This document shows, piece by piece, positions 6,957 to 52,822 of a stretch of DNA of 64,000 bases. The notes below the pieces were generated by a model. It searched no databases, was not told the origin of the DNA, and saw only the letters and a list, made by a program, of their open reading frames with translations. The position numbers were made by a program, and so were the translations under genes. Position 1 is the stretch's first letter; each line of letters opens with the position of its first letter. Source of the stretch: Dehalococcoidia bacterium (GTDB lineage Bacteria > Chloroflexota > Dehalococcoidia > Lucifugimonadales > G963668185); assembly GCA_965261935.1 (NCBI GenBank), contig OZ253485.1, forward strand, positions 1,304,388 to 1,368,387, read 5' to 3'.

Positions 6957-8291
6957 CTACGCCGCCCCCTCCTCGCGCAGGTCTCTGAGGGCCTGTGCGA
7001 AGGCATCGGCCGTCTCGTCGACGGCCTCCTCGCTGTGGGCCGAAGAGACGAAGAACGCGCGCCCTCCCATCATGTCCACACCGTTGACCAGCGCCGCCTG
7101 CCGCAGCGCCATCGTCTTCGCGCGCGGCATCGCCGCCTCTATCTCGTCGTAAGGCATCGTGCACATGCCGCGGTCGCAGTCGCAGTCCGCGCCCAGCGTC
7201 ACGTGGACGATCGACGATATCCCGTGCGCGTGGCCGGCTACTTCGTTTCGGATGAACGCATCGTTCAGGCCCTGCTTCAGCCGCTCCGCCATGGCGTCCG
7301 CCCCCGCGTTCACGCCTTGCGTGGCGATCGCCTCCAGCGTCGCGATGCCCGCGGCCGCCGTGACCGGCTGCGCGTTGTACGTGCCCCCTTGGGCCACACG
7401 GCCTATTCCGTCCCAGTCCGGGTCGTTCCGGAACGCCATCAGTTCCATGATGTCCGCGCGCCCTCCGACAGCGGCGCCCGGCTGGCCTCCCGCTATGATC
7501 TTCGCGAACGTGGAAAGGTCCGGTTCCAGGCCCCACCTCACCTATGCACCTCCGGGCGAAAACCGGAATCCCGTTATGACCTCGTCCATGATGAACACCA
7601 CGCTCCGGCGTTCTGTTATCTCCCGCAGGTCCTGCAGGAACGCCGGGTTCTGCAGAGGGTGCGTCCCGTAGTGCGCTCCGTTGCTCTCGACAATCACGGC
7701 GGCAACGTCCCCGTCTTCGGCCAGGATCCGGTCGACCGCCGACGTGTCCGCTGGCGCCACGATCACCGAATCGAGCACGGCTTGGGGCACGCCGCCGTAC
7801 GACTGCCCCGACTCCGGAACGCCGTAGTCCTGCCAACCGTGGAAGTGGTCCTGGAACTTCACAACCTTCGTCTTGCCGGTGTACGCCCGGGCGAGCCTCA
7901 TCGCCAGGTAAGTCGATTCGGTGCCCGACGATGTGAACCGCACCCTTTCGAGCGACGGCACAAGCCGCTTCACGGCCTCCGCATACCGGACCTCGTGCGT
8001 GGCCGCCCCGCCCATGTGCGTCCCTTTTCCCGCCTGCTCGGCCACCGCCGCCGTTACGCCGGCCGGGCTGTGGCCCATCAACAGGCTCCCGTTTCCCATC
8101 ACGTAATCGGTGATCCGGTTGCCGTCCACGTCGTACTTGTACGGCCCCTCCGCGTGCTCGAAGTGGACCGGAAACGGCGATGTGAAACGGGTCTGGTGCG
8201 TCACGCCCCCCGCGAAAAGCGACTTGCCCCGTTCGTACCACTCCGCCGAACCGCCGAACTTCGACGCGTACCTTTCTTCCACAGTGGACAT
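6957..8291 (-). pseudogene. Class-III PLP aminotransferase (glutamate-1-semialdehyde aminomutase-like) interrupted by a single in-frame TAG at 7542..7544
   Basis: ORFs 7542..8342 and 6957..7541 are in the same frame and contiguous: ...[36 protein letters not shown]... The PLP lysine context (AKIIAGG) is intact. ATG 8291 follows GGGAGGGG. Confidence 0.8.
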
Positions 8292-8710
8292 GTTCCCCTC
8301 CCAAGACTGCTGAATCGCCCGCAGTGTATGCCAGTCCCCCAATCACCGTCATCCACGAGGAATGGCTGAGGATTGATTGTTGTTCTTATCCGTTCGCCCT
8401 GGGTCGCTCCTGAGCTTGTCGAAGGGAGCCTCCTAGAGCCTGAGGAAGGGCCTTTGGAGGATCTTGCGAGTCGGGACAACTAACAAGGCCACATCCGGCT
8501 CGTCAGTTACATCTTTCGTTAGCGTTTACACTCACTTCCTTGGAATTTGCTCAAGCCCGGCATCATCGGCGTTTCTTCCAAGGTCAGCGATCAGTAGTTT
8601 GCACACATCCCTACTGAGTCAGCAAGGGGATACGACCTGCCGAAACCTGAGTGCGGTACGCCTCACCTATGGAGAGGTGCGAAAGGCTTGCAGCAAGACT
8701 TCCTCGGGCC

Positions 8711-9337
8711 TTAAGAGCTAGCTCCTGCGAGGTCATCTTGATGGATTTTGGCCTCTAGCGTTGCCAAATGGTGACTCCACGCAATAAGCCTAAGATGAAC
8801 TTTCTCAAGCGAGTCGTTTCCTTCTTCTCCCCATATGTCTGGACTTGCTATCCCTAATTCGCTCAATTTTCTTGTCAAGAATTCCATTTCAGTTGCAATC
8901 TCAGCAAACACATCACGAGCATTGAGTACTCGCATTGCAATGGTCAATTGCCCAAGCGTGCCAGCGTAAGGCCGAATCAGCCTTCGACATCGTTGAACAT
9001 GCGGTAAACACGCCTTAAACCGCCTGAAGTCTTCATCGGGCCGTGCTGATGTTGGCGGAACGACAGCTAGGGCCTCTTGAGTGTGACCGGATTGCAACCT
9101 CCGTTCAGCGATAACAACCACACGAGAGACAATTGCGCTCATTCGAGGCCACCACCACTCAGATGTGCCAAGAAGTATACTGCCAACTATTCCAACGGGG
9201 TAAATGAAGAGTGGAATCCTAATGTCTTCGACCCATGAATACCACGTAAGGGAATCGTCAATGAATCCTGGTAGACCGTGGGCAAACAACAGCACAGCGA
9301 TGACTGTTCCACTGATAGGTCTTGCCCATTTGCGCAT
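8711..9337 (-). CDS. Hypothetical membrane protein (2-3 N-terminal TM helices plus a helical C-terminal domain), in a compositionally atypical stretch
   Basis: 208-aa ORF with no family recognised. The surrounding roughly 1.1 kb is visibly more AT-rich than its flanks. Confidence 0.45.
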   Translation of the reverse strand: MRKWARPISGTVIAVLLFAHGLPGFIDDSLTWYSWVEDIRIPLFIYPVGIVGSILLGTSEWWWPRMSAIVSRVVVIAERRLQSGHTQEALAVVPPTSARPDEDFRRFKACLPHVQRCRRLIRPYAGTLGQLTIAMRVLNARDVFAEIATEMEFLTRKLSELGIASPDIWGEEGNDSLEKVHLRLIAWSHHLATLEAKIHQDDLAGASS

Positions 9338-9448
9338 TCACTCATGCTATAGCTCGTCTCTCAATTCCGTAAAGTCGACAACACACGAACCTTCCAATAG
9401 CAAAGACAACCGCTAGCATCGAACAATAGTCCCTCAGCCCCCTCCAGC

Positions 9449-9478
9449 TTGCCCGCCCAACTGGCGCCACCATAGAAT
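9449..9478 (+). promoter_or_regulatory. Candidate sigma-70 promoter TTGCCC-N18-TAGAAT upstream of 9518..10489
   Basis: Hexamers at 9449..9454 and 9473..9478, about 40 nt upstream of the ATG, which follows AAAGGAGG. Confidence 0.3.
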
Positions 9479-9517
9479 CGCCACATCCTCGGTGCAACTC
9501 GGACAAAGGAGGCCGAC

Positions 9518-10489
9518 ATGCCGACAAAGACGATCCGTGAAAGACTGGACTCTGGAGAGCTCCTCATCATGGACGGAGGCACCGGGTCTGAACTGCAGGC
9601 CCGCGGCGCCGATGTCCTGGTCGGCGCCACAGTGGACACCGGGCTGCAGGCATGGTCCGCTACCGCAAACGTCGAGCACGCCGACGTCGTCCAGCAAGTC
9701 CACCAGGACTACCTCCGCGTGGGCGCAGACATTCTCATAAGCAACAACTTCTGGACCAGCCCGTCACGCATGGAGCCCATCGGCCTGAAGGACGATTGGT
9801 CGAAGTACGCGCGCGCCTCAGTCGAGAATGCGATCAGGGCCCGTGACGCCCTCAAGCCTGAGGCCTACGTGACCGGCGGCATGGCGCCCCCCTGCCTCAC
9901 ATACTCCGAAGACGCGTCGGACGTCGTTCAGATGGGCGCCGCCGCTTTCCGTGACGAGTACTCCCAACACGCTAGATTGCTGGCCGACGCTGGCGTCGAC
10001 GCGCTGCTTCCGGAGTTCCTGGCAAGCATCGAAGAGTGCGTTGAGGCCGTCGATGCCTGCGCCGAGACCGGCCTGCCTGTCCTGCTCGGCGTGCGCAGCA
10101 TCCAGGAAGACGGCGGCTTGAAGTCCGGCGAGACCATGGGGGACTTGGTCTCCTCCCTTAAAGGCCGAGACATCGACGCCATTCTGCTGATGTGCTCCAG
10201 GCCGGAGAACATCACGGAGGGCCTGCGCAAGCTCCGCGATGCATACGACGGCCACATTGGCGGATACGCCAATATAGGCTACGGCGGAGTGGGAGTCCTC
10301 GGCGAAAACGCCCGGCAGCGCTACATGACCCTCACGAACTACGGCCCCGCCCGCGTCGCGGAGTTCGCCCGCGAGTGGAAGGAAATCGGCGCGCACGTCA
10401 TCGGTGGATGCTGCGGCACCGGTCCAGAGCACATCCTCATGATGAACCTGGTGCTCAAAGACCTGGAGCGCCCGGCGGCAATCGCATAG
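9518..10489 (+). CDS. Homocysteine S-methyltransferase family protein
   Basis: LIMDGGTGSELQARG at the N-terminus and GGCCGTGPEHI near the C-terminus (zinc-binding Cys pair). Confidence 0.8.
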   Translation: MPTKTIRERLDSGELLIMDGGTGSELQARGADVLVGATVDTGLQAWSATANVEHADVVQQVHQDYLRVGADILISNNFWTSPSRMEPIGLKDDWSKYARASVENAIRARDALKPEAYVTGGMAPPCLTYSEDASDVVQMGAAAFRDEYSQHARLLADAGVDALLPEFLASIEECVEAVDACAETGLPVLLGVRSIQEDGGLKSGETMGDLVSSLKGRDIDAILLMCSRPENITEGLRKLRDAYDGHIGGYANIGYGGVGVLGENARQRYMTLTNYGPARVAEFAREWKEIGAHVIGGCCGTGPEHILMMNLVLKDLERPAAIA

Positions 10490-42291: not shown

Positions 42292-42906
42292 ATGCGGGTT
42301 GGTGTCTTTGGCGGAACGTTCGATCCGGTGCACTTGGGCCACCTGTTACTGGCAGAGAGCGCGGCGGATGAGCTTGCTCTGAACAGTGTGCTGTTCATAC
42401 CTGCCGGCAACCCGTATCTGAAGGCTGGGTTGCCTGTGTCGTCGGCTGAACACCGGATGACTATGGTGCGGGCGGCAGTCGAAACGAACCCACGGTTCGA
42501 AGTGTCGGACATAGAGGTTCGCAACCCTGGCCCAAGCTACACGATCGAAACATTGGAACGGCTGCAAGCTGAACTCTCACTTGAAACCCAGTTGTATCTT
42601 CTCTTGGGACTGGACTCTCTCTCGGATATGCCCCGCTGGAAGAGTCCAGAGAGAATCCTCGAACGTGCGCAGATCGTAGCCTACCCTCGTGCGGGGAAGC
42701 ACGGCCCGTATCACCATTGCTCGGTTAGCGTCTTGGGACGTACGGTATCTGTCCTTGATGGCCCGCTCGTAGGCATCAGCGGAACAGGGATTAGGAGGCG
42801 GGTATCTAAGGGACTGTCGATCAAGTATCTGGTGCCGGATAGAGTAATCGATTACATCCAATTCAGCGGCCTCTACTCGTCGCATCGTCCCAGCCTTCCG
42901 GCTTGA
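42292..42906 (+). CDS. nadD: Nicotinate-nucleotide adenylyltransferase
   Basis: VGVFGGTFDPVHLGHL motif. It starts 2 nt after the obg stop (conserved obg-nadD linkage). Confidence 0.9.
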   Translation: MRVGVFGGTFDPVHLGHLLLAESAADELALNSVLFIPAGNPYLKAGLPVSSAEHRMTMVRAAVETNPRFEVSDIEVRNPGPSYTIETLERLQAELSLETQLYLLLGLDSLSDMPRWKSPERILERAQIVAYPRAGKHGPYHHCSVSVLGRTVSVLDGPLVGISGTGIRRRVSKGLSIKYLVPDRVIDYIQFSGLYSSHRPSLPA

Positions 42907-42997
42907 CGCTCAATGACGGCCATGAACAACATGCGCACTCTTTGACCGTCGGTAAGCCTGTCTTGGACGAAGTGGCGCAGAAAGCAGGGGGCCGCAA

Positions 42998-43792
42998 TTG
43001 GTGCAGATCTTGGAATTGAAGGCTCAGCCCGACTTGGCGAGCCGCGTGCGCGGAATAGAGGACGACGGATACGCGTACTTCCCCGGCGCCATCGACGCCG
43101 ACCAGGTCGCCGCTCTTCGAAAAGCGATGGATCGCCTGACACCTATCGAGGAGAGCTTCGACCAATACACGACTCCTGAGACCGGTGGGTTTCACAACAA
43201 GCACATCAACAACTCATTCAACAAGGATCCTATCTTCCTGCAATACCTGGATATGCCGGGCGTGATAGATTTGGCTGAGGCCACCCACGGGGAAGACTGC
43301 CACATCATCGGCATGACCGCATGGGTCACGGGTCCGGGGCGCCCCGACCAGCGGCTCCATTGCGACTGGCTTCCGGTCGAAGTTCCTGAAGTTCTGCTGG
43401 CAGACCCGCGCGTGAAGATGCCCGTCTTCATTTCAACTGCCCACTACTACCTTAACGATCTGTACGAGGAACTAGGCCCCACGAAATTCATTCCCGGCAG
43501 CCACAAGTCGGGCCGCCTGCCAAACGGGGCTACGGAGTGGCAGAGGCGCACCGAGCAGAGCGTGCTGTGCAAGGTGGGCGACGTGTTGATGTTCCGCTGC
43601 GAAGTGTGGCATCGGGGCACCGCAAACCGCAGCAACGAAACACGCTACCTGCTCCAGGTGCACTACGCTCAGAGGATGATCACGCAGAAATTCCCGCCTT
43701 ACCTCCACCGGGTTCAGTTCGATATTCTGGCGAGATGCACACCGCGCCAGCTTCGCCTGCTCGGCGATCACGCACGCGGCGCCTACGACTAA
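42998..43792 (+). CDS. Phytanoyl-CoA dioxygenase (PhyH) family Fe(II)/2-oxoglutarate oxygenase
   Basis: GYAYFPG..., LHCDW (HxD), FIPGSH, and CEVWHRGTANRS (distal His/Arg). Confidence 0.75.
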   Translation: MVQILELKAQPDLASRVRGIEDDGYAYFPGAIDADQVAALRKAMDRLTPIEESFDQYTTPETGGFHNKHINNSFNKDPIFLQYLDMPGVIDLAEATHGEDCHIIGMTAWVTGPGRPDQRLHCDWLPVEVPEVLLADPRVKMPVFISTAHYYLNDLYEELGPTKFIPGSHKSGRLPNGATEWQRRTEQSVLCKVGDVLMFRCEVWHRGTANRSNETRYLLQVHYAQRMITQKFPPYLHRVQFDILARCTPRQLRLLGDHARGAYD

Positions 43793-43876
43793 TCGTATTC
43801 TTGGTCGCATGACCGCAGGACGAAGTCCCTCTAGAAGCGCGCCTGGCCAGTTGCCCGCGCAGATGGGCCCGTCAGC

Positions 43877-45682
43877 GTGAAGTCCAGTGTCTTGACACCA
43901 GGACTGACGGTCGGACATGTCAGGGCGGGCTTAATGGCCGTGTCGGACCCCGCCTTCAAACTCACATTCGCATCGCTGCTGATTCTAGCGTCGCTAGGTG
44001 TCACGTACACGGACTCCCTCGGGAACTTTCCGCCGTTCGAACTCCGAAGCGTCTTGTTGCGCGGGATGGCTGTCAGCGGCATCCTGCTGCTCGGCGCTCT
44101 GGCGATTTCGCTCCGCTCTCGTACCGCATCGAACGGGGCGTTGGCCATCATTACGCTGGCCGGCATATTTACGGCATACATAGTCCACACCGAGCTGTTC
44201 TATTCAGGAAACGAGATTTGGATACTCAGTGCGTGTGCGGCGGCGGGTATCACGCTCTTCGTAGCATTCCGGCTCATAGATGAGCTTCGTTGGGGAGGGC
44301 TCGCCCTGTCGACAGTGGCGGTCGTGGTTGCTGTGGTGCTTGTATGGGCGGAGGCAGGATCGGAGATTGTGCGGGGGTTCAATACGCCTGGGGGCCTCTT
44401 CTACCTTAGCAGTACCACGATGTGGCTTGCCCTCATCGGATTGTGCTCCTTCGCAGGGGATTCATTTTACTTGATGTCTCGGATTGTCGACGCTTCCCGT
44501 TGGGGAAGCGTCGCCCTACTGGTTATCATGTTGACGGTTGTCTCCCTTTTCATCTTCCTGGGGCACAGGTTTGGTACTGGCGGGGACGACCTCCACGGAG
44601 ATGTGGAAGCTGTCAGCGGCCTATCCACCAGCGGCTGGGAAGACCATCCAAACGTCCGCTCCATCGTCTTCAGGGATACGCCGCAGGTGTACTTCGTCGG
44701 ATTCGATGCGATCACCCCTGAAGCAATCATGCAGAGATACATGGGAATCGAGACAACCGACTTCCACCAGGTGTTGGAAGCGGACATGCGCCGTATTCGG
44801 AACCTGTTTACTAACAGCGTTTCTACGAGGAACTCACTGAACACGCTCCTAGCGCTGGACTTGGACCTCTATCTGAATACCGGGGCAGAAGGTGATGATC
44901 GGCCCAACTACTTCGCAGGGCATGACCTAAGTCCACTGGTCTGGATTCTAAGGCAGAACGGGTACGAGACGACATCCATCTTTGAGAATGCGTACATGGG
45001 AAACCGAGGAGGTCCGGGCATTGACAACTACATAATCAATCAGTATGTCGCTCTGTGCTCACTGCTGGACCAAGACATACGACCGTGGGCGTTCTGGGGC
45101 TACTGCTGGAACCAAGAAGTAACAGATTTTCGCCCATCTCAGCTCCTCTCCCGGGACGAATTCTTCTTGACGGAGTTGACTAGTGTGGAGAGAACAGGCC
45201 CCCAATTCGTGATCGCGCATATCTGGATGCCTGGCCACACGCCCTCGAAGTTCGATTACTCAAATCAGGCCGAGAAAAAGGACTTTGTCACTCGTTACCG
45301 TGAGAGGTTCGATGCGGCTGCAATTATTCTGGAGCAGATCATTGATCACATCCGCGTCAACGACCCTGATGCCATCCTGTTCGTTTACGGCGACCACGGA
45401 GCTTGGCTGTCCAGCAGGATGAAAATCGAAGAAAACCCTGAGTTCTTCCTCCAGGACCGGTTCGGCATCCTCGGAGGCGTGTATCCGCCAGACCGTTGCG
45501 CCGCTGAGTTCGACGAGGCGGAGAGCAAGGGGTACGTGACCTCCCTGGACATCGTCCATGCGATACTAGAGTGCCTCTCCGGAGGGCAGAGCCCGCTCCG
45601 GGAGCCAAGAAATGATCGGTTCTGGGGTCCAGGAGTGCCCGAAGACCACTCCTACGATTACGAGGAGTTCCTCTATGAATAG
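43877..45682 (+). CDS. Membrane-anchored alkaline-phosphatase-superfamily protein (LtaS/EptA/sulfatase-like architecture), paralogue A
   Basis: About 250 aa of TM helices, then an extracytoplasmic domain with VYFVGFDAI, IWMPGHTP and VYGDHGAWLS (metal-ligand-like D / PGH / GDHG). Confidence 0.65.
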   Translation: MKSSVLTPGLTVGHVRAGLMAVSDPAFKLTFASLLILASLGVTYTDSLGNFPPFELRSVLLRGMAVSGILLLGALAISLRSRTASNGALAIITLAGIFTAYIVHTELFYSGNEIWILSACAAAGITLFVAFRLIDELRWGGLALSTVAVVVAVVLVWAEAGSEIVRGFNTPGGLFYLSSTTMWLALIGLCSFAGDSFYLMSRIVDASRWGSVALLVIMLTVVSLFIFLGHRFGTGGDDLHGDVEAVSGLSTSGWEDHPNVRSIVFRDTPQVYFVGFDAITPEAIMQRYMGIETTDFHQVLEADMRRIRNLFTNSVSTRNSLNTLLALDLDLYLNTGAEGDDRPNYFAGHDLSPLVWILRQNGYETTSIFENAYMGNRGGPGIDNYIINQYVALCSLLDQDIRPWAFWGYCWNQEVTDFRPSQLLSRDEFFLTELTSVERTGPQFVIAHIWMPGHTPSKFDYSNQAEKKDFVTRYRERFDAAAIILEQIIDHIRVNDPDAILFVYGDHGAWLSSRMKIEENPEFFLQDRFGILGGVYPPDRCAAEFDEAESKGYVTSLDIVHAILECLSGGQSPLREPRNDRFWGPGVPEDHSYDYEEFLYE

Positions 45683-45847
45683 AACACTGCCCAATGAAGT
45701 CATAGTAGGGTGCTTATCGCGGCAGCTGCCTTGCCTCGTGCTGTTTCTGCGTCCGACGGCGCCGAAACCATGACTGCCGCCGCGCTACGGGCAAACAAGG
45801 CCGACGAAGGACACTGGCGGCGGCCCGTTGACAATCCCTAGACCAGA

Positions 45848-47584
45848 GTGATGGATTGGCCGACCGTGCGCTTGAGGACGGGTCTTGAAGGAGCATCCGA
45901 ACCGGCCTTCAAACTCACGTTCTCGGCCCTGCTCATAACTGCTGCCCTGGGAGCCACGTATCTCAGTTCCGAGGATAACTTCCCAGGAATTGAGTTGAGA
46001 GATGTCCTCGCGCGCGGAATGGCCATCAGTCTGGTCCTGCTGCTCGGATCGCTAGCGTTATCACTGCGCTTGAAGACTCTGGCGAATGGTGCGTTGGCGC
46101 TGGTTACGCTTGCCGGTATATTCACAGCCTACATCGTCCACACTGAGCTGTTTTATCCCGGAAACAGGGCCTGGATGCTCGTTGTGTGCTTGGCCGCGCT
46201 GGTCACGCTTTTCGTGGCGTACCGCCTTATCGACCACCTTCGTTGGGGAGGGCTCGTCCTGTCAGCGGTGGCGTCGCTCCCTTTAGCTGCGCTTATCTGG
46301 TCGCAGGTCTGGCCAATGTTCACAGCGGGAATCGCCACACCCGGCGGCCTGCTCCAATTGGGGAGTCCCTTGATGTGGGTCGGCCTTCTTGGAATCTGCG
46401 CAGGCACGGTACTCGCACTGCATTTGATGTTCCGGGCTGCGGAAGCTCCACTGTGGGGAGCGTTTGCCCTGCTGGTTGTGACTGCGTTTCTCGTCTTCGC
46501 ACTGATCTGGCTAGATAGGAATCATGGCGAAGGCGGTACTGGCTACTACGCCGACGGCTGGGAAGACCACCCCGGCATTCACGCCTTAACATTCGACGAA
46601 ACGCCTAACGTGTACTTTGTCGTCTTCGACTCGATTGTCCCTGAGGCCATAGTGCAGAAGCAGATGGGAATCGAGACGACCGATTTCCACAGGGTGTTGG
46701 AAGTGAACATGCGCCGTCTCCCCAATCTGTTTGCCAACAGCATCACGACCATCTACTCACTGAATGCTCTCTTGGCTCTCGATTGGGACATATTTATGAA
46801 GCAATGGGAGGATACCGGTTCAAGACCTAGCTATGTCGCCGGGCATGATTTGAGTCCACTCGTGTGGACTTTCAGAGAGAATGGGTACCAAGCTACATCC
46901 ATCATCAACACGCCGCACTTTGGGCATCGCCAAGGAATGGGCATAGATAACTACATCATTAACAGGAGTGAGGCAATCTGCCTCTTGCTGGATGAGGATG
47001 TAAGGCCTTGGGCATTCTGGGGCTACTGCAGATATCGTGAAGCCGATCCAAAGCCAGGGGAACAAGTTCCATCAGGAGAATTTCTGGTACGCGAAATCGC
47101 TGGGATCAACAGGAGCAACCCCCAGTTTGTGATCGCGCATCTTTACTTGCCTGGCCATTACCAGAAGCAGCATGACAGAGAGACCTTCATAGAACAGTAT
47201 GAAAGAAACTTCAACAACGCGGCCGTCTTCCTCGAACGGATCATTAGACATCTCAGGATAAATGACCCTGAGGCGATACTATTCATTCTTGGTGATCACG
47301 GAGCCATGCTGTCCCAAGAGTTCAAGATTGAAGAAGACCCCACGTTCTTCCTCCAGGACCGGTTCGGCATCCTCGGAGGCGTGTATCCGCCGGACCGTTG
47401 CGCCGCTGAGTTCGACGAAGCAGAGAGCAAGGGTTACGTGACCTCCTTAGACATCGTGCATGCGATACTAGAGTGCCTGTCTGGTGGACAGAGCCCGCTC
47501 CGGGAGCCGAGGAATGACCGGTTCTGGGGTTCGGGAGTACCCGAAGACCACTCTTACGAGTACGAGGAGTTCCTCTATGAATAG
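45848..47584 (+). CDS. Membrane-anchored alkaline-phosphatase-superfamily protein, paralogue B
   Basis: Collinear with 43877..45682 (VYFVVFDSI, LYLPGHYQ, LGDHGAMLS). The last 79 residues are nearly identical to paralogue A. Confidence 0.65.
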   Translation: MMDWPTVRLRTGLEGASEPAFKLTFSALLITAALGATYLSSEDNFPGIELRDVLARGMAISLVLLLGSLALSLRLKTLANGALALVTLAGIFTAYIVHTELFYPGNRAWMLVVCLAALVTLFVAYRLIDHLRWGGLVLSAVASLPLAALIWSQVWPMFTAGIATPGGLLQLGSPLMWVGLLGICAGTVLALHLMFRAAEAPLWGAFALLVVTAFLVFALIWLDRNHGEGGTGYYADGWEDHPGIHALTFDETPNVYFVVFDSIVPEAIVQKQMGIETTDFHRVLEVNMRRLPNLFANSITTIYSLNALLALDWDIFMKQWEDTGSRPSYVAGHDLSPLVWTFRENGYQATSIINTPHFGHRQGMGIDNYIINRSEAICLLLDEDVRPWAFWGYCRYREADPKPGEQVPSGEFLVREIAGINRSNPQFVIAHLYLPGHYQKQHDRETFIEQYERNFNNAAVFLERIIRHLRINDPEAILFILGDHGAMLSQEFKIEEDPTFFLQDRFGILGGVYPPDRCAAEFDEAESKGYVTSLDIVHAILECLSGGQSPLREPRNDRFWGSGVPEDHSYEYEEFLYE

Positions 47585-47779
47585 ATTAGTGCTAAAGGTC
47601 GTACTGGTAGCGATAGTCGCCGCAACCTCGGTCTGGCCGCTGGCCGCCTTGGCGTTCGACGGCGCTGAAGCCGTGAACGGCACCGCCGGGCGATTCGAGG
47701 TCCTGCTAGCTTATATCGATCCCGGCGCGGGAGGCTTCATTATCGTCACCGTTCTGGGCTTCATTTCTGCCGCCGGGTA
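47577..47779 (+). pseudogene. 5' part of a small signal-peptide/TM protein gene, disrupted by the IS
   Basis: ATG 47577 overlaps the upstream stop (ATGAATAG). Sequence MNRLVLKVVLVAIVAATSVWPLAALA...YIDPGAGGFIIVTVLGFISAAGY is then interrupted at the IS boundary. Confidence 0.6.
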
Positions 47780-49419
47780 TGTCGACGCTCAGCGATTATG
47801 TCCGCCTAAGTGCCAAGGGAAAATGTCCTCTGAGTAGATTGCCATGCTAGCTGATTACGGTACTTCCGACGTTGCGCGAGCGCGCCATGGGTGGGGTTTC
47901 GGCATTCATGTACTTCCTTGCAGTGTCCCGGTGGATGCCCACTTCCCGGGCGATCCCACGGATGGACAGGCCCTTGCGTTTCGCCTTCTGCACCGCCTTC
48001 CATCTCGCCGTCTGTAGTGGGGTGGGCTTTCTGGGTCGCGGAGTCACAGTCCTGCGAACTCTTGCGGCGCCGTTGCGGTCGGCATCGTCGCGGAGTCTGT
48101 CCGCTTCGAGCATTGTGCCCATTGACTCCACTTCGTCCTCCGGCCTCCTGATGACACCGTTGGTGTAGCGGCTGGGACCGGTCGTGTGTACGGTCCGCGT
48201 GCCGAAGCTGCGCAGGATACCTGGTCGCGGAGGCGCTTCCTGGGAGGCGACGATACGCCCTTCGTGTTGCACTGACAGCCGGCCGTCCAGTGCTTCGAGC
48301 ACTTCCACCGCCGACCCGGCAAAGCTCGGTCGAGCCTGATCGGGAAGCAACTGCAGGGTGCGCCAGCGGTACTTCACAGTGTTGTCCCGGCCAACCCGGC
48401 GCCTGTACTTCAGGCATAGGACTGTGTCCAGGCACGTCCCCGGATCCAGGACCCGATACGCGGTGTCTGCGTGTTGCGACGGCACACCAAAACGTTCATT
48501 GAAGCGGGGAAGGAAGTCGTTGAGCACGCGGTTGGCGTCATCGATGGTGGTCGAGCCTGCGAGCCTCAGCTCCGTGACCAACCTGTCCTGAAGTGTGCCC
48601 GCGGCGCGTTCCACTCGGCCTTTGGCTTGCGGCGACCGTGCGAATATCAGCTGTACGCCGATCTCACCCATCGCGCGAGAGAACTGGGTGGGGGCGGAGG
48701 CGGTCTCTGACGGCGGCGTGTGCTTGAAGACGCCATGGCGGTCTGAATAGAGTGCGAGAGGTATGCCGTAGCTCCGTATCAGAATCCGCATCAGCAGTAA
48801 GTAGCTGCGGGTGTTCTCCAACTCGCAGAACAGGGCGTTGACGACACAGCCGGTAGCGTCGTCGACCGCCAGCAGCAACGTGAACTGGGGGCCATCTTCT
48901 CCCAGCCATCTGTGGTAGCTGCCGTCGATCTGTATCAGCATCCCCTCGCGGGCCATCCGCTGCCGTCGAACACGATGCTTCGGCGGCCTTCGACGGCGGG
49001 GGCTGCTCACACCGGCGTCGGTCAGTATCTTGCGCAATGTGTTACGTCCGATGTCTATGCCCTCTCGCTCCCTCAGCAGTTCGCTCAAATGCGTGTGGTT
49101 GACTCCCGCGTATCGGGTCCGCGCCAGGACCACCACGTCGGTCGCCAACGGGTCCGGTGTAGCGTTGGCCGGTCTGCGACCTCGATTGCCGTGAGCGAGT
49201 GCGGCTGCGCCGTCCCTTCTGTAAGCCGCCAGAATACGCCTGGTGTGGCGCGCGCTCACTCCCATCAACGTGGCTGCCTGCTCCGTGGTCATATGGTCCG
49301 CCACCAAACTGTTGAGAACCTGAAGCCTCGTCTGCTCTTTCTGTGTCAATGTCACATGCTCCTTCATGCGGACATTTTCGCTTGACAGTTAGCGAGGACT
49401 TAATCGCTGAGCAACAACA
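47780..49419 (-). mobile_element. Insertion sequence (1640 bp) with about 49-bp imperfect terminal inverted repeats and a 7-bp target-site duplication CCGGGTA
   Basis: Left end is TGTCGACGCTCAGCGATTATGTCC...GAAAATGTCC (47780..47828). The reverse complement of 49370..49419 is TGTTGTTGCTCAGCGATTAAGTCC...GAAAATGTCC. Direct repeats CCGGGTA lie at 47773..47779 and 49420..49426. Confidence 0.85.
47847..49367 (-). CDS. DDE (integrase-core/rve) transposase with N-terminal HTH; family tentatively ISNCY/IS481-like
   Basis: LTQKEQTRLQVLNSLV..TTEQAATLMGVSARHTRRILAAYRRDGAAALAHGNRGRRP; DDE-type IQIDGSYHRW, LYSDRHGVF, AKGRVER. Confidence 0.8.
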   Translation of the reverse strand: MKEHVTLTQKEQTRLQVLNSLVADHMTTEQAATLMGVSARHTRRILAAYRRDGAAALAHGNRGRRPANATPDPLATDVVVLARTRYAGVNHTHLSELLREREGIDIGRNTLRKILTDAGVSSPRRRRPPKHRVRRQRMAREGMLIQIDGSYHRWLGEDGPQFTLLLAVDDATGCVVNALFCELENTRSYLLLMRILIRSYGIPLALYSDRHGVFKHTPPSETASAPTQFSRAMGEIGVQLIFARSPQAKGRVERAAGTLQDRLVTELRLAGSTTIDDANRVLNDFLPRFNERFGVPSQHADTAYRVLDPGTCLDTVLCLKYRRRVGRDNTVKYRWRTLQLLPDQARPSFAGSAVEVLEALDGRLSVQHEGRIVASQEAPPRPGILRSFGTRTVHTTGPSRYTNGVIRRPEDEVESMGTMLEADRLRDDADRNGAARVRRTVTPRPRKPTPLQTARWKAVQKAKRKGLSIRGIAREVGIHRDTARKYMNAETPPMARSRNVGSTVIS

Positions 49420-49426
49420 CCGGGTA

Positions 49427-49517
49427 CATGGCAAGATCGTACCTGGCCCGTCTCAAGTCAATGGTGTTCAGGGGCGGCGCGTCGGCACGGGAGCGCAAGA
49501 GCGGCGAAGGACACTAA
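49427..49517 (+). pseudogene. 3' part of the IS-disrupted small membrane protein gene
   Basis: After removing the IS and one TSD copy the frame continues ...AAGY-MARSYLARLKSMVFRGGASARERKSGEGH-TAA. The stop lies 15 nt before the methyltransferase ATG. Confidence 0.55.
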
Positions 49518-49531
49518 CGGCGGCGACGCAT

Positions 49532-50965
49532 ATGTTGAGAGCGGACGGCGGGTCATTCAGGGATCCGTCAGGTCGTGTGTACCTGTTTGAAGATGAGGCT
49601 GGCGGGCGTCGCGTGGTCCGCGGCTTGTCAGCCGCCACAGCGTCGACGGTCGACCGACTGTTGCGCGAGCCGTTCTTCAAGCAACTCGTGGCGGGTGGCG
49701 ACGTCGTTGAGACACACCTCCTTCGTACAGAGGATCCCGTACTCGACGCCGTAACTAACGAGGGCTGGTCGGCAGCAGTCGAGCACGAGGCCGTGGACTT
49801 CCCAACGTGGCCCTATGAATGGCCCTTCTCCATGCTCCAGGATGCCGCTCTCCTGCAACTGGACTTGCTGGTCGCGGCCGTTGGCAACGGATGGACACTC
49901 AAGGACGCCACCCCGTACAACATCCAATGGTCAGGTATGCGGCCGGTGTTCATAGACATTCCCTCCTTCGTTCCACGCGACGATGGCGAGTACTGGCAGG
50001 GCTATCGGCAGTTCTGTTCGATGTTTCTCACCCCGCTCATGCTGACGGCCCATCTTGGGATCCCGTTTCATCCTCTGCTGCGCTCCTGTTTGGAAGGCAT
50101 TCCGCCGGAAGAAGCCGCAAAGTACTTCCACGGGCTGCGCCGGCTAAAGCGAGGTGTGCCGTCGCATATCTGGTTTCCGGCGATCGTTGAGAAGCGAATG
50201 CAGCGTCGGTCCGGACCAGGATCCTCTCCACGGTCCAAGCGCAGACAGTCCGAGACGGCGCTTTTGGCCCTCCTAGACGACCTCAAACGGCTGGTGGGCG
50301 GCCTGAAGCTTCGTACTAGAGGAACTTCGGACTGGGCCCGGTACTCCGATACACATTCGTACCAGGACGATGATTTCGGCAGGAAGATCGCATTCGTCGA
50401 AAAGCACACGTCGGCGCGCCGTCCGCGGCTCTTGTGGGATCTGGGCGCGAACACCGGGGCATTCTCCGGCGTTGCGGCAAGGCACTCAGCGACAGTAGTC
50501 GCGGTGGACAGCGATCACCATGCTGTGGACATTCTTTACCATGAGGCCCGAAACAGAGGCGAAGAGAACATCATTCCGCTGGTGATGGACTTGGCCAACA
50601 TGTCGCCCGGCCAGGGCTGGGCGGGGCGGGAACGCGCCGCGTTCGAAGCCAGGCGGAGCCCCGACATGGTGCTTTGTCTTGCTCTGATACACCACCTCCG
50701 CGTCTCAGCAAACATTCCGATTGCGTTGTTCGTAGAGTGGCTGCGCAGCTTGGACGCCCCCGCCATCATTGAGTTCGTCAGCCGGGATGACGAAATGTTC
50801 GTCAAGCTCGTGCAACACAAGAGCGAGGACTACCCCGACTACACGTTCGAGCACTTCCAGTCGGCTGTCGGAAAGCACTTCACGGTTGAAGACAGGATTG
50901 CGCTCAAGGGAGGAAAGCGTGAGTTGCTCCTAATTCAGCCTAGGAGTTCGACGTGTATAGGGTAG
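49532..50965 (+). CDS. Class I SAM-dependent methyltransferase with a large N-terminal extension
   Basis: N-terminus SFRDPSGRVY...; SAM-binding motif LLWDLGANTGAFSGVAA...VVAVDSD; LALIHHL. The upstream part of ORF 49343 runs through the IS end and is rejected. Confidence 0.7.
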   Translation: MLRADGGSFRDPSGRVYLFEDEAGGRRVVRGLSAATASTVDRLLREPFFKQLVAGGDVVETHLLRTEDPVLDAVTNEGWSAAVEHEAVDFPTWPYEWPFSMLQDAALLQLDLLVAAVGNGWTLKDATPYNIQWSGMRPVFIDIPSFVPRDDGEYWQGYRQFCSMFLTPLMLTAHLGIPFHPLLRSCLEGIPPEEAAKYFHGLRRLKRGVPSHIWFPAIVEKRMQRRSGPGSSPRSKRRQSETALLALLDDLKRLVGGLKLRTRGTSDWARYSDTHSYQDDDFGRKIAFVEKHTSARRPRLLWDLGANTGAFSGVAARHSATVVAVDSDHHAVDILYHEARNRGEENIIPLVMDLANMSPGQGWAGRERAAFEARRSPDMVLCLALIHHLRVSANIPIALFVEWLRSLDAPAIIEFVSRDDEMFVKLVQHKSEDYPDYTFEHFQSAVGKHFTVEDRIALKGGKRELLLIQPRSSTCIG

Positions 50966-51085
50966 CCTGGCAGACTTGGGCCTTGGCTCATATGTCGCCG
51001 GCCTGTCGCGAAACCCTTGATGCCTTCGCTGTCTCGCTCATACGATGAGCGCAATGACGGACCACGAAAGAGGGCAGGGGCCTTA

Positions 51086-51451
51086 ATGAAAGAAGCCGAC
51101 TTCTACTGGTATCGCAAATGAAGCGCCTGTAGAGAACTAAGAGCGTTGCTCTTGGAAGGCGGTGTCCGGCTGAACGAGCGCGAATATTTTCGCGATCACT
51201 TCACCGAGAACGAACTGCGTCAAACACTCGCCGGTCGGCACGCCTCCGAGATCTTCTCCCGGCGCAGTCCCAGCTTCCGAAAACTCGGGCTCGACTTCGA
51301 GTCGCTCTCGGGCGATGATCTGATACGACTGATGGTCGAAGAGCCTCGCCTCATCAAACGCCCCCTAGTACGATGGGGTGAGAGCCTCATAGCGGGAAGC
51401 GGAAAAGCTGAACGTGGCGCGATCCAGGCGGCACTGAGAGACGCAGACTGA
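51086..51451 (+). CDS. ArsC/Spx/YffB-family thiol-type reductase; candidate selenoprotein (UGA at 51119..51121 giving a U-S-A-C motif)
   Basis: ATG 51086 (after AGAGGGCAGGGG), then MKEADFYWYRK-TGA-SACRELRALLLEGGV..., in frame with ORF 51146..51451. LIKRPLV motif present. A hairpin lies downstream of the TGA. Confidence 0.6.
51137..51155 (+). promoter_or_regulatory. SECIS-like stem-loop downstream of the in-frame UGA
   Basis: CUAAGAGC-GUU-GCUCUUGG: 8 bp including one G-U pair. The apical loop begins 23 nt after the UGA and has G in its first position. Confidence 0.45.
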
Positions 51452-51478
51452 ATCGAAGTTAAACAGCGGAGGGCCAGC

Positions 51479-52234
51479 ATGGCGACCACCGAAAAGACTC
51501 TATGGACAGACGAGCAGGTGAGGCAGGAAGTACGAGAGCACTATGGCGCCTTGGCCCGCCGATCGACCGCCTGCTGCGAAGACGCAGAGGCGGAGGTCGC
51601 CGGGTCCCTGTACGACCAGCGTCAGACCGAAGGCCTGCCGGCCGAGGCCCTGCAGGCCGCCGCGGGATGCGGTAACCCCACGGCGTTGGGGTCCTTGCGG
51701 CCGGGCGAAACCGTCGTAGACTTCGGCAGTGGCGGCGGAATCGACTGCTTCATGGCGTCGCGCGCCGTCGGTCCCACCGGTCGGGTGATCGGCATAGACA
51801 TGACCCAGGACATGATCGACCTCGCCCGCAGCAATGCACAGAAGCTTGGCGTCCGCAACACCGAGTTTCACCTCGCTGTTATGGAAAACACCCCCTTGGA
51901 GAGTTCCACAGTAGACGTGATCATCTCCAACTGCGTCATCTGCCTCGCTCCGGACAAAGACGCCGTCTTCCGGGAGGCCTACCGCATTCTGAAGCCCGGC
52001 GGCAGGCTGTATGTATCGGATATGGTGTTGGCCCAGCCACTCCCGTCAGACTTCGCGCCCAGCTCCGAGAGTTGGGTGTCTTGCGCCGGAGGCGCCGAGG
52101 ACAGGACCGTCTATCAGAAGCGGCTTGCCAACGCTGGTTTCGAAAGGCTCGACGCCATATCCGAAGTCCCCTACGAGGACGACGACATACCGAATCTCTA
52201 CAGCTACAGCTACGTGGCCTACAAGCCGGAGTAG
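51479..52234 (+). CDS. arsM: Arsenite S-adenosylmethionine methyltransferase
   Basis: HYGALA...ACCE, AAGCGNPTA, VVDFGSGGGID, ISNCVICLAPDK: the conserved Cys set and SAM motif of ArsM. Confidence 0.8.
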   Translation: MATTEKTLWTDEQVRQEVREHYGALARRSTACCEDAEAEVAGSLYDQRQTEGLPAEALQAAAGCGNPTALGSLRPGETVVDFGSGGGIDCFMASRAVGPTGRVIGIDMTQDMIDLARSNAQKLGVRNTEFHLAVMENTPLESSTVDVIISNCVICLAPDKDAVFREAYRILKPGGRLYVSDMVLAQPLPSDFAPSSESWVSCAGGAEDRTVYQKRLANAGFERLDAISEVPYEDDDIPNLYSYSYVAYKPE

Positions 52235-52264
52235 CGCGCGAGGCGGATCGCGAGGCGGATCGGG

Positions 52265-52822
52265 CTAGGCCGCGACAGCAGACCTGTCGGCTATGTCCTG
52301 GCTGAGCCTGTCCATCCCGTGTCGGACCTGGCCTAACGCGTTGGACAGTTCCTCCTCCAACTGCGAAAGAACTTCTTGGGCGTATTGATCGGCACCCTCG
52401 CGCTTCTTGGACGCCTGCTTCTCCAGTTCGTTGGCCATGCGGTAAGCCTTCTCTTGGGCTTGATTGTTGGTCCGCTGGGCATCGTGGACCGCATCTTCGC
52501 GAATCGAGTCTGCCTTGGTTTCGGCGGCCTTAATGATCTCGGCCTCGTTCACCTTGGAAAGGTACTCTACCTGGGCTTCCTGCTTTACTGCGGCCGCTTC
52601 TTGAGATGCCGTGGCCTTGATCCGGCGCGCCTCTAGGTTAGCCTGGTTGATGATGCTGTCCTTCTGACGGATTACCTCTTGGGCTTCCATTACCTCGGCG
52701 GGCGCCGATGTCCTCAAGCCTTGGGCGTGAGACATCATCTGGTCGATGTCTACCATCACCTTGTTCTTGAAGCCGGGCACCCTTGTTCCCGTGTTCACCA
52801 TGTCGTCCAGTGCGTCCGCCAA
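52265..52822 (-). CDS. Coiled-coil protein (ATP-synthase-b-like/DivIVA-like helical repeat), function unknown
   Basis: 185 aa, Ala/Glu/Gln/Lys-rich heptad-like sequence. It lies downstream of coaD on the same strand. Confidence 0.55.
   Translation of the reverse strand: MADALDDMVNTGTRVPGFKNKVMVDIDQMMSHAQGLRTSAPAEVMEAQEVIRQKDSIINQANLEARRIKATASQEAAAVKQEAQVEYLSKVNEAEIIKAAETKADSIREDAVHDAQRTNNQAQEKAYRMANELEKQASKKREGADQYAQEVLSQLEEELSNALGQVRHGMDRLSQDIADRSAVAA

Follow-up and report, generated by a model that had tools for sequence, protein, structure and literature searches.

Evidence for a divergent NoeA/NoeB-type cassette with a tandem-duplicated membrane enzyme in a Dehalococcoidia genome

Introduction

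In Sinorhizobium meliloti, the nod-box n5 operon comprises nodL, an open reading frame (ORF) for a 71-aa product, noeA and noeB (Ardourel et al. 1995, as far as recounted in PMC9048898 and PMC9758233), and according to the same accounts genetic work of 1995 linked noeA and noeB to legume host range. A nodL mutant with polar effects on noeA and noeB produces Nod factors that are altered solely by the loss of O-acetylation. Here, we analyzed a stretch of 64,000 nucleotides (the window, to which all coordinates refer) from the genome of a Dehalococcoidia bacterium (Chloroflexota; GenBank assembly GCA_965261935.1, contig OZ253485.1, positions 1,304,388 to 1,368,387 of the forward strand), in which positions 43877 to 50965 harbor genes for two adjacent membrane enzymes of the alkaline-phosphatase (AP) superfamily (A and B), a small membrane protein (the microprotein) and a homologue of NoeA. 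This locus is very probably a divergent three-gene cassette of the NoeA/NoeB type, the membrane enzyme of which has been duplicated in tandem; as such, it does not constitute a new system, but varies one that is known and named and the biochemistry of which is unsolved.

NoeA and Lani_1194 of Legionella anisa are covered as one family in the Legionella 'pan-kinome' paper (PMC9758233, Sci Rep 2022), in which the kinase site is described as featuring an Arg instead of K72 of protein kinase A (PKA), with the equivalents of D166, N171 and D184 being kept, and as being fused to a class I methyltransferase. The neighboring proteins Lani_1193 and Lani_1195 (AP fold, NoeB homologue) occur in 65% and 38% of 816 neighborhoods, respectively (PMC9758233). 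The window shares with the Legionella unit the kinase-like and methyltransferase family and conserved neighbors including an AP-fold protein. The Lani proteins were treated as possible effectors (PMC9758233), whereas the topology of the window proteins points to envelope chemistry, and the sponge-type clade described below is, like its enzyme family, absent from the Lani_1194 paper. The combination of a kinase with a class I methyltransferase is also the chemistry of WbdD (PMC3482155) from Escherichia coli O9a (PDB 4azs/4ax8), which resembles the NoeA-like protein in that a kinase-like domain is fused to a class I S-adenosylmethionine (SAM) methyltransferase, and which provides a precedent for phosphorylation and subsequent methylation of the phosphate on an envelope glycan. 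On the membrane side, EptA, EptC, MCR-1, LtaS and BcsG all combine, like A and B, an N-terminal polytopic membrane domain with an extracytoplasmic AP-fold domain, and BcsG, as presumed for the window enzymes, cooperates with BcsF, a small protein that passes the membrane once, and with BcsE in the cytoplasm.

Results and discussion

The NoeA-like protein

The last gene of the cassette (49532 to 50965, plus strand) encodes a bifunctional NoeA-like protein of 477 aa, which was assigned by BLASTP comparison with S. meliloti NoeA, an AlphaFold2 (AF2) model and Foldseek searches. Its start codon is the ATG at 49532, and the same Met is used in about 48 homologues. BLASTP revealed 34% identity to S. 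meliloti NoeA over 468 residues (E value of 5e-85), and a tblastn search of plasmids with the 477-aa protein matched 65 records, mostly Sinorhizobium pSymA, with the matches lying beneath genes annotated as noeA; on 57 Sinorhizobium plasmids, noeA was matched with a query coverage of 96–99%. An earlier sequence-only reading of the locus had been unable to assign the paralogues to a named subfamily; the set can nevertheless be placed, as the methyltransferase is a NoeA homologue and the trio equals the units of S. meliloti and Legionella. The same reading had described a 477-aa SAM methyltransferase with a long N-terminal domain, of which the methyltransferase fold stands, whereas the N-terminal part is identified by its motifs as an atypical kinase-like domain.

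This kinase-like domain (approximately residues 1–230) features R30, D125, N130 and D142, the latter three embedded in the catalytic-loop pattern L-K-D125-A-T-P-x-N130 ... F-I-D142. Across 149 diverse members of the NoeA family, D125, N130 and D142 are conserved in 100% and R30 in 99% of the sequences, and all four residues are present in NoeA. The D-to-N spacing of 5 equals that between D166 and N171 of PKA, while the following N-to-D spacing is 12 compared to 13 in PKA, and the order of secondary-structure elements in the AF2 model fits an N-lobe, a helix, the catalytic loop, beta7 and beta8. The kinase assignment is based on this motif conservation together with the description of the family in 2022 (PMC9758233).

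Foldseek searches with the whole model were dominated by the C-terminal domain, which resembles ChlM, UbiG, NodS and WbdD at E values of about 1e-7 and clearly adopts a class I SAM methyltransferase fold. SAM motif I is conserved (D303-x-G-x-N-x-G309), and weak matches to Pfam Methyltransf_11/12/23/25 were obtained for 13–18 of 21 family members. In ten distant members of the NoeA family, only the methyltransferase was matched by Pfam, and ten distant cluster representatives carry no other names than 'SAM-dependent methyltransferase' or 'hypothetical'. In the protein library, about 2,300 clusters formed at 50% identity belong to the family, and the NoeA/NoeB trio belongs to the more widespread bacterial cassettes without known chemistry. 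As the NoeA-like protein has no export signal, it is expected to be cytoplasmic. A side observation concerns a loop of the methyltransferase domain (residues 357–368, window approximately 50600–50635) with the pattern N-x-S-P-x-Q-G-W-x-G-x-E-R, which is near-invariant in the 149 members but for which the AF2 model has a predicted local distance difference test (pLDDT) score below 50; the loop is a candidate for substrate binding or for an interface.

Since WbdD combines the same two activities (PMC3482155) and its structures are among the Foldseek matches of the methyltransferase domain, the NoeA-like protein might alternatively act as a glycan chain terminator that, within the cytoplasm, adds a phosphate to the end of a lipid-linked polysaccharide and subsequently O-methylates it, yielding a methyl-phosphate cap, with the AP-fold enzyme acting later on the exported polymer, e.g. 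by ligating or trimming it. We regard this as unlikely. The domain order is reversed (the methyltransferase comes first in WbdD), the kinase motifs differ, and the NoeA-like protein has no coiled-coil, whereas WbdD carries a C-terminal coiled-coil ruler. WbdD is encoded in an O-antigen ABC-transporter locus and needs neither an AP-fold partner nor a microprotein, while no mannosyltransferase, ABC-transporter or other O-antigen genes are conserved near the cassette in the 54 loci that are introduced below.

Comparison with the S. meliloti operon

In the annotated pSymA region, nodL is followed by a gene for a 71-aa hypothetical protein, noeA (476 aa) and noeB (550 aa). The 71-aa product consists of MPIIMSVVGFLILSIVPAHA, then YLDPGTGS..., directly preceded by AHA, a transmembrane (TM) helix and a basic tail, a design that equals that of the window microprotein, and NoeB matches Pfam Sulfatase with an E value of 2e-10. 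Common to both units are a NoeA protein (34% identity, with homology extending along the entire sequence), a microprotein in which a Y-x-D-P-G-x-G motif is combined with a TM helix and a basic tail, and a membrane protein that is polytopic and carries a domain of the sulfatase fold. In both, the genes sit in a single operon and are associated, presumably so in the window, with a host interaction. They differ in gene order, which is enzyme, microprotein and NoeA-like protein in the window and microprotein, NoeA and NoeB in S. meliloti. The window enzyme moreover has seven TM helices, lacks BLAST-level similarity to NoeB and is tandem-duplicated, neither nodL nor a nod box is present, and the host is a metagenome-assembled genome (MAG) of a Dehalococcoidia-type Chloroflexota. 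By position and architecture, i.e. a polytopic membrane domain plus an AP fold next to a NoeA homologue, B is the counterpart of NoeB.

Tandem membrane enzymes A and B

Paralogue A (43877 to 45682, plus strand, 601 aa) was taken from the ORF listing and comprises seven TM helices and an extracytoplasmic catalytic domain, while paralogue B (45848 to 47584, plus strand, 578 aa) was additionally characterized by AF2, Foldseek and residue conservation among 67 homologues. Pairwise alignment revealed 59% identity over 587 columns, covering the whole length. The two genes are encoded on the same strand, and both proteins terminate with ...FLYE, the stop codon overlapping the start of a small gene (ATGAATAG), so that the overlap reported earlier after both paralogues is indeed present. 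According to hydropathy and the AF2 model, the membrane part consists of seven helices within the first ~230 residues, and the Arg and Lys residues of A are found on alternate short loops (hydropathy, loop charge pattern), which fits an N-in, C-out topology. The AF2 model of B, computed with 20 homologues, showed the seven N-terminal helices followed by an alpha/beta domain (pLDDT of 78, predicted template-modeling score (pTM) of 0.75).

In Foldseek searches, this alpha/beta domain resembled arylsulfatases, PbgA/YejM, EptC, MCR-1 and EptA at E values of 1e-9 to 1e-7, and several matches span the whole length including the membrane part (PbgA, EptA 5fgn, MCR-1 9nww). The proposal of two adjacent paralogues (601 and 578 aa) with a TM part and an AP-superfamily domain of the LtaS/EptA architecture is thus borne out by the ORFs, the AF2 model and Foldseek, and the motifs FD[SA], PGH and GDHG, to which it had pointed, are conserved among the 67 family members. 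On the residue level, D/E261 is conserved in 65/67, T/S301 in 67/67, H437 in 66/67, D483 in 67/67 and H484 in 66/67 sequences. Judged by their spacing, T301 of B is the putative nucleophile, and D261, H437, D483 and H484 are putative metal or catalytic residues. T/S301 follows the first acidic metal ligand at a distance of 40 residues, which we take to be the phosphotransferase arrangement, by analogy to E240 and T280 of EptA and assuming that these positions map onto B. Furthermore, Cys394, Cys518 and Cys543 of B are each found in 67/67 sequences of the family alignment, and Cys378 occurs in every sequence of the alignment of 20, in line with an extracytoplasmic location of this domain.

Pfam Sulfatase (PF00884) scored the paralogues with 24.1 and 18.5 bits, under its curated gathering cut-off of 25 bits, none of the NCBIfam models, including those of the EptA/LtaS type, matched the membrane enzymes, and PDB sequence searches with B alone or with a B profile gave no match. 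Of the features of the EptA/MCR-1/LtaS type, the nucleophile and the metal set behind a membrane anchor are thus present, whereas no Pfam or NCBIfam model matches above its cut-off. A and B share with EptA-type transferases the Thr/Ser nucleophile, the Asp/Glu ligand and the Asp-His metal pair; they differ from them by an identity of only 12–15% in structural alignments, by having seven instead of five TM helices, by the kinase-methyltransferase as a partner and by the Sulfatase score below the cut-off. Membership in the formylglycine-dependent sulfatases was ruled out at the motif level: none of the 67 members features Cys/Ser-x-Pro-x-Arg, and at the nucleophile position, T or S is embedded in N-x-[VI]-x-[TS]-x-x-S.

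Given that arylsulfatases are the best Foldseek matches and that sponge-associated bacteria are known for their many sulfatases, A and B could also be envisioned as hydrolases with a membrane anchor, acting as a phosphodiesterase, phosphatase or sulfatase in the scavenging of esters from the host or seawater, the link to the methyltransferase being incidental. The formylglycine motif in 0/67 members, the presumed EptA-like spacing of 40 residues to T/S301, a seven-helix anchor typical of lipid-using transferases and the synteny with the NoeA-like gene across phyla (see below) render this improbable. Still far less probable is a role as non-catalytic sensors or regulators, to which the PbgA/YejM structures among the top whole-length matches could point, since the active site of PbgA is degenerate and the nucleophile and metal-ligand set of the window family is kept in 65–67 of 67 members.

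Third codon positions of A and B are identical at a fraction of ~0.3–0.5 over most of the gene and of 0.7–0.87 in the last ~90 codons (window 45430–45682 and 47330–47584). From this pattern, we concluded that the duplication is old and that the 3' tract has been homogenized; it indicates gene conversion on top of the extreme conservation of the C-terminal protein segment (...FLQDRFGILGGVYPPDRC...FLYE), which is very strongly conserved in all homologues of the 20-sequence alignment. A strain sharing 98% identity with the window along 7.7 kb has a third copy of the enzyme in tandem, immediately after B (L099:7396-9540, ENA ERZ28763718 ctg3956), at the place of the microprotein gene and the insertion sequence of the window; the contig ends inside this copy. 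The copy number of the array hence varies between near-identical strains. In a same-genus genome, the match to a single enzyme gene (L020:8001-9777) is divided between adjacent frames, one covering 8001-8342 and the other 8344-9777, which suggests a frameshift or an assembly error.

Distribution and mobility of the cassette

A scan of one genome per species yielded 54 loci encoding B-like proteins, all in MAGs, which belong to at least eight phyla. The order B-like gene, small gene and NoeA-like gene was found in 48/54 loci, so that the conserved cassette anticipated from the window holds up on inspection of gene neighborhoods, and no other gene family is common to the 54 loci. In the other six loci, no NoeA-like gene lies next to the enzyme gene; several of these represent extra enzyme copies in genomes that contain a full cassette elsewhere (L004/L029, L009/L016, L037/L041). 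The enzyme is often multiplied; L045, for instance, carries six copies and L033 carries four. The genome of the window contains just this one cassette. Across cassette loci, the NoeA-like proteins share 56–78% identity (51% in the most distant, L053), compared to 33–63% for the enzymes.

A maximum-likelihood tree, computed for 47 NoeA-like proteins with NoeA and ordinary homologues from Dehalococcoidia as the outgroup, placed all cassette copies in one short-branched clade in which eight phyla are interleaved, indicating horizontal transfer of the clade. For example, six pseudomonadotal sequences fall within a Dehalococcoidia group (Shimodaira-Hasegawa-like approximate likelihood-ratio test (SH-aLRT) of 98), and a sequence from Latescibacterota falls within Pseudomonadota. 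In an even sample of the same class, 20/300 genomes encode a NoeA homologue, at just 33–42% identity, and six of eight distant Dehalococcoidia loci examined contain, in this order, a microprotein, NoeA and a membrane protein above the Pfam Sulfatase cut-off, as in pSymA. Based on this low class-wide identity and the pSymA-like order elsewhere, the trio is old and general, while the window version represents a rare, divergent and mobile clade.

The cassette hosts comprise Dehalococcoidia, Caldilineaceae, Entotheonella, Nitrospirales, Latescibacteria, Binatia, Longimicrobiales, Acidimicrobiales, Spirochaetia and Pseudomonadales, and the names SB0662, RHO3 and Langseth occur among the MAGs. Judging by these taxa and names, the hosts would be sponge symbionts. 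The SB0662 bins include sponge Poribacteria, which is the sole confirmed sponge tie among the MAGs; a literature search with the MAG accessions retrieved no record of a sponge origin.

Proposed function

Taken from their sequences, the cassette products are a predicted cytoplasmic NoeA-like protein with intact kinase-like and methyltransferase sites, a predicted outward-facing AP-fold enzyme with an intact Thr/metal site, and a microprotein that is predicted to span the membrane and to link both sides, the three being co-inherited in the 48/54 loci. The microprotein is probably single-pass, with the Y-I-D-P-G-x-G motif at the outer membrane face and a basic amphipathic tail inside. By analogy to BcsF, which serves BcsE and BcsG, it would hold the NoeA-like protein at the membrane or tether it to the enzyme. 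The NoeA-like protein would phosphorylate and/or methylate a membrane-bound precursor on the cytoplasmic side, with WbdD as a precedent, and the AP-fold enzyme would then, on the outside of the cell, transfer a substituent that contains phosphate to an acceptor in the envelope or on the surface via a covalent phospho-Thr intermediate, as in LtaS, EptA and BcsG. Paralogous enzyme copies would widen the range of acceptors. The order of reactions, the nature of donor and acceptor and the scaffold role of the microprotein are what we infer for this cassette, and we propose this chemistry only tentatively.

The sequence-only reading had suggested envelope decoration by transfer of a phospho-head group followed by methylation. 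Envelope decoration is also the best guess of the literature, whereas the suggested order is topologically unlikely: with a cytoplasmic methyltransferase and an extracytoplasmic AP domain, any methylation probably precedes export or transfer. Neither of the two outcomes that would have spoken against the idea was observed, since the named family has no known substrate and the genes co-occur strongly.

For the explanation as a whole, i.e. a NoeA/NoeB-type cassette carrying out a membrane-spanning envelope modification, we estimate a probability of roughly 0.55. Several results weigh against it. The substrate is not known for any member of the NoeA/NoeB family, and near the cassette no glycan-synthesis genes were found that would hint at the acceptor. 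Alignment of the N-terminal domain with APH kinases from related genomes by hhalign gave a non-significant E value of 0.2, no better than a methyltransferase-domain control, and a hidden Markov model of this domain found no match in PDB and Pfam. Pairwise BLASTP of B against NoeB was not significant, and hhalign of the B profile returned 7e-8 against a NoeB-like set compared to 6e-7 against a soluble sulfatase-fold control from the same genome. As B is not detectably closer to NoeB than to this unrelated sulfatase-fold protein, the AP component may be either a non-orthologous replacement or a very diverged orthologue of NoeB. Moreover, the cassette may be non-working in this strain owing to the insertion described below. 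A specific relationship between B and NoeB, considered as a separate point, is regarded as unproven, the control protein scoring about alike.

Novelty is confined to three points: a clade of the sponge type, the weak link between the enzyme of this clade and NoeB, and the decay seen locally. Compared with the described units, the locus adds a clade of its own, the membrane enzyme of which is very divergent, evidence for movement of this clade between phyla that apparently share the sponge habitat, and evidence for a fast change in the copy number of the outward enzyme while the cytoplasmic enzyme is highly conserved. Divergence, cross-phylum movement and copy-number change together support a cell-surface role in host interaction. 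Going further, the clade might be a host-association determinant that is swapped horizontally among sponge symbionts of at least eight phyla and adds a surface (methyl)phospho-substituent which the sponge recognizes or tolerates. We offer this as speculation that is rather doubtful at present; if true, it would parallel the host-range role of noeA and noeB in rhizobia, with the quickly duplicating and diverging AP-fold enzymes tuning the decoration. The locus itself does not reveal the chemistry, and it provides a second natural system, besides rhizobia, for seeking the product of the cassette.

Microprotein genes and the insertion sequence

The microprotein gene that follows B is interrupted by an insertion sequence (IS). 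Its 5' part (47577 to 47779, plus strand) encodes a segment resembling a signal peptide and a linker, after which come A-Y-I-D-P-G-A-G-G as the motif and a TM helix, and its 3' part (49427 to 49517, plus strand) encodes the basic cytoplasmic tail MARSYLARLKSMVFRGG...GEGH followed by the stop codon; as it stands, the gene reads into the IS and ends at 47837. The IS is a 1,640-bp element of the ISNCY family (47780 to 49419) with a transposase gene on the minus strand (47847-49367; NCBIfam transpos_ISNCY_2, E value of 8e-120), imperfect terminal inverted repeats and a 7-bp target duplication, CCGGGTA, at 47773-47779 and 49420-49426. When the flanks are joined without the IS, a frame of 97 aa is restored, each residue of which lines up with the intact genes of the same genus (L020, L002). 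In many loci (L026, L027, L035, L038 and others), the signal segment ends with A-H-A directly before Y-[IV]-D-P-G, so that the mature microprotein would begin with the conserved motif; in other loci the signal segment is missing, and the protein starts a few residues before the motif.

After A, a decayed remnant of the small gene is left (45675 to 45847, plus strand), in which the start and the 3' end are kept and the middle, coding for the DPG motif and the TM helix, is deleted. When the 173-bp spacer at this position was aligned to the copy-B small gene, it matched ~130 bp at the beginning and ~30 bp at the end of that gene, from which we concluded that the ancestral duplication comprised the enzyme together with the small gene. 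The duplicated unit recognized earlier is thereby confirmed, its small gene being split by an IS after B, as seen from the target-site duplication, and internally deleted after A, as seen from the alignment.

These lesions raise the question of whether the cassette is a decaying relic in this genome from which nothing is made, a view that concerns its present state and is compatible with the envelope-modification reading. In its favor, the only remaining microprotein gene is split by the IS, which is located between B and the gene for the NoeA-like protein; of the copy-A small gene, no more than a remnant is left; and there is no second cassette. The 3.23-Mb genome moreover contains ~24 copies of the IS at 99–100% identity in addition to older copies at 72–94%, the near-identical copies pointing to a recent burst, and the expansion of the element in this symbiont-like genome appears to be ongoing. 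On the other hand, the ORFs of A, B and the NoeA-like protein are all intact, the truncated microprotein keeps its signal segment, motif and TM helix, and the insertion looks very recent, with a perfect 7-bp duplication, the ~24 copies of 99–100% identity and intact genes in the same genus. We therefore consider a relic possible, with the balance tilting against it. Loss of microprotein function through the IS is probable, and the insertion may also have cut off the NoeA-like gene from the upstream genes.

Flanking genes and signals

A search of positions 42500-52500 against Rfam gave no match, and promoter and terminator scans remained at or under shuffle expectation. The genes flanking the cassette (dnaA, obg, nadD, phyH ... 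arsC-like, arsM, coaD) are common only to three genomes of the same genus; the PhyH dioxygenase directly upstream of the cassette and the downstream ArsC/ArsM were therefore not accepted as cassette members. The former is a PhyH-family 2-oxoglutarate/Fe dioxygenase (42998-43792, Pfam E value of 4e-22), the gene of which is duplicated in L013.

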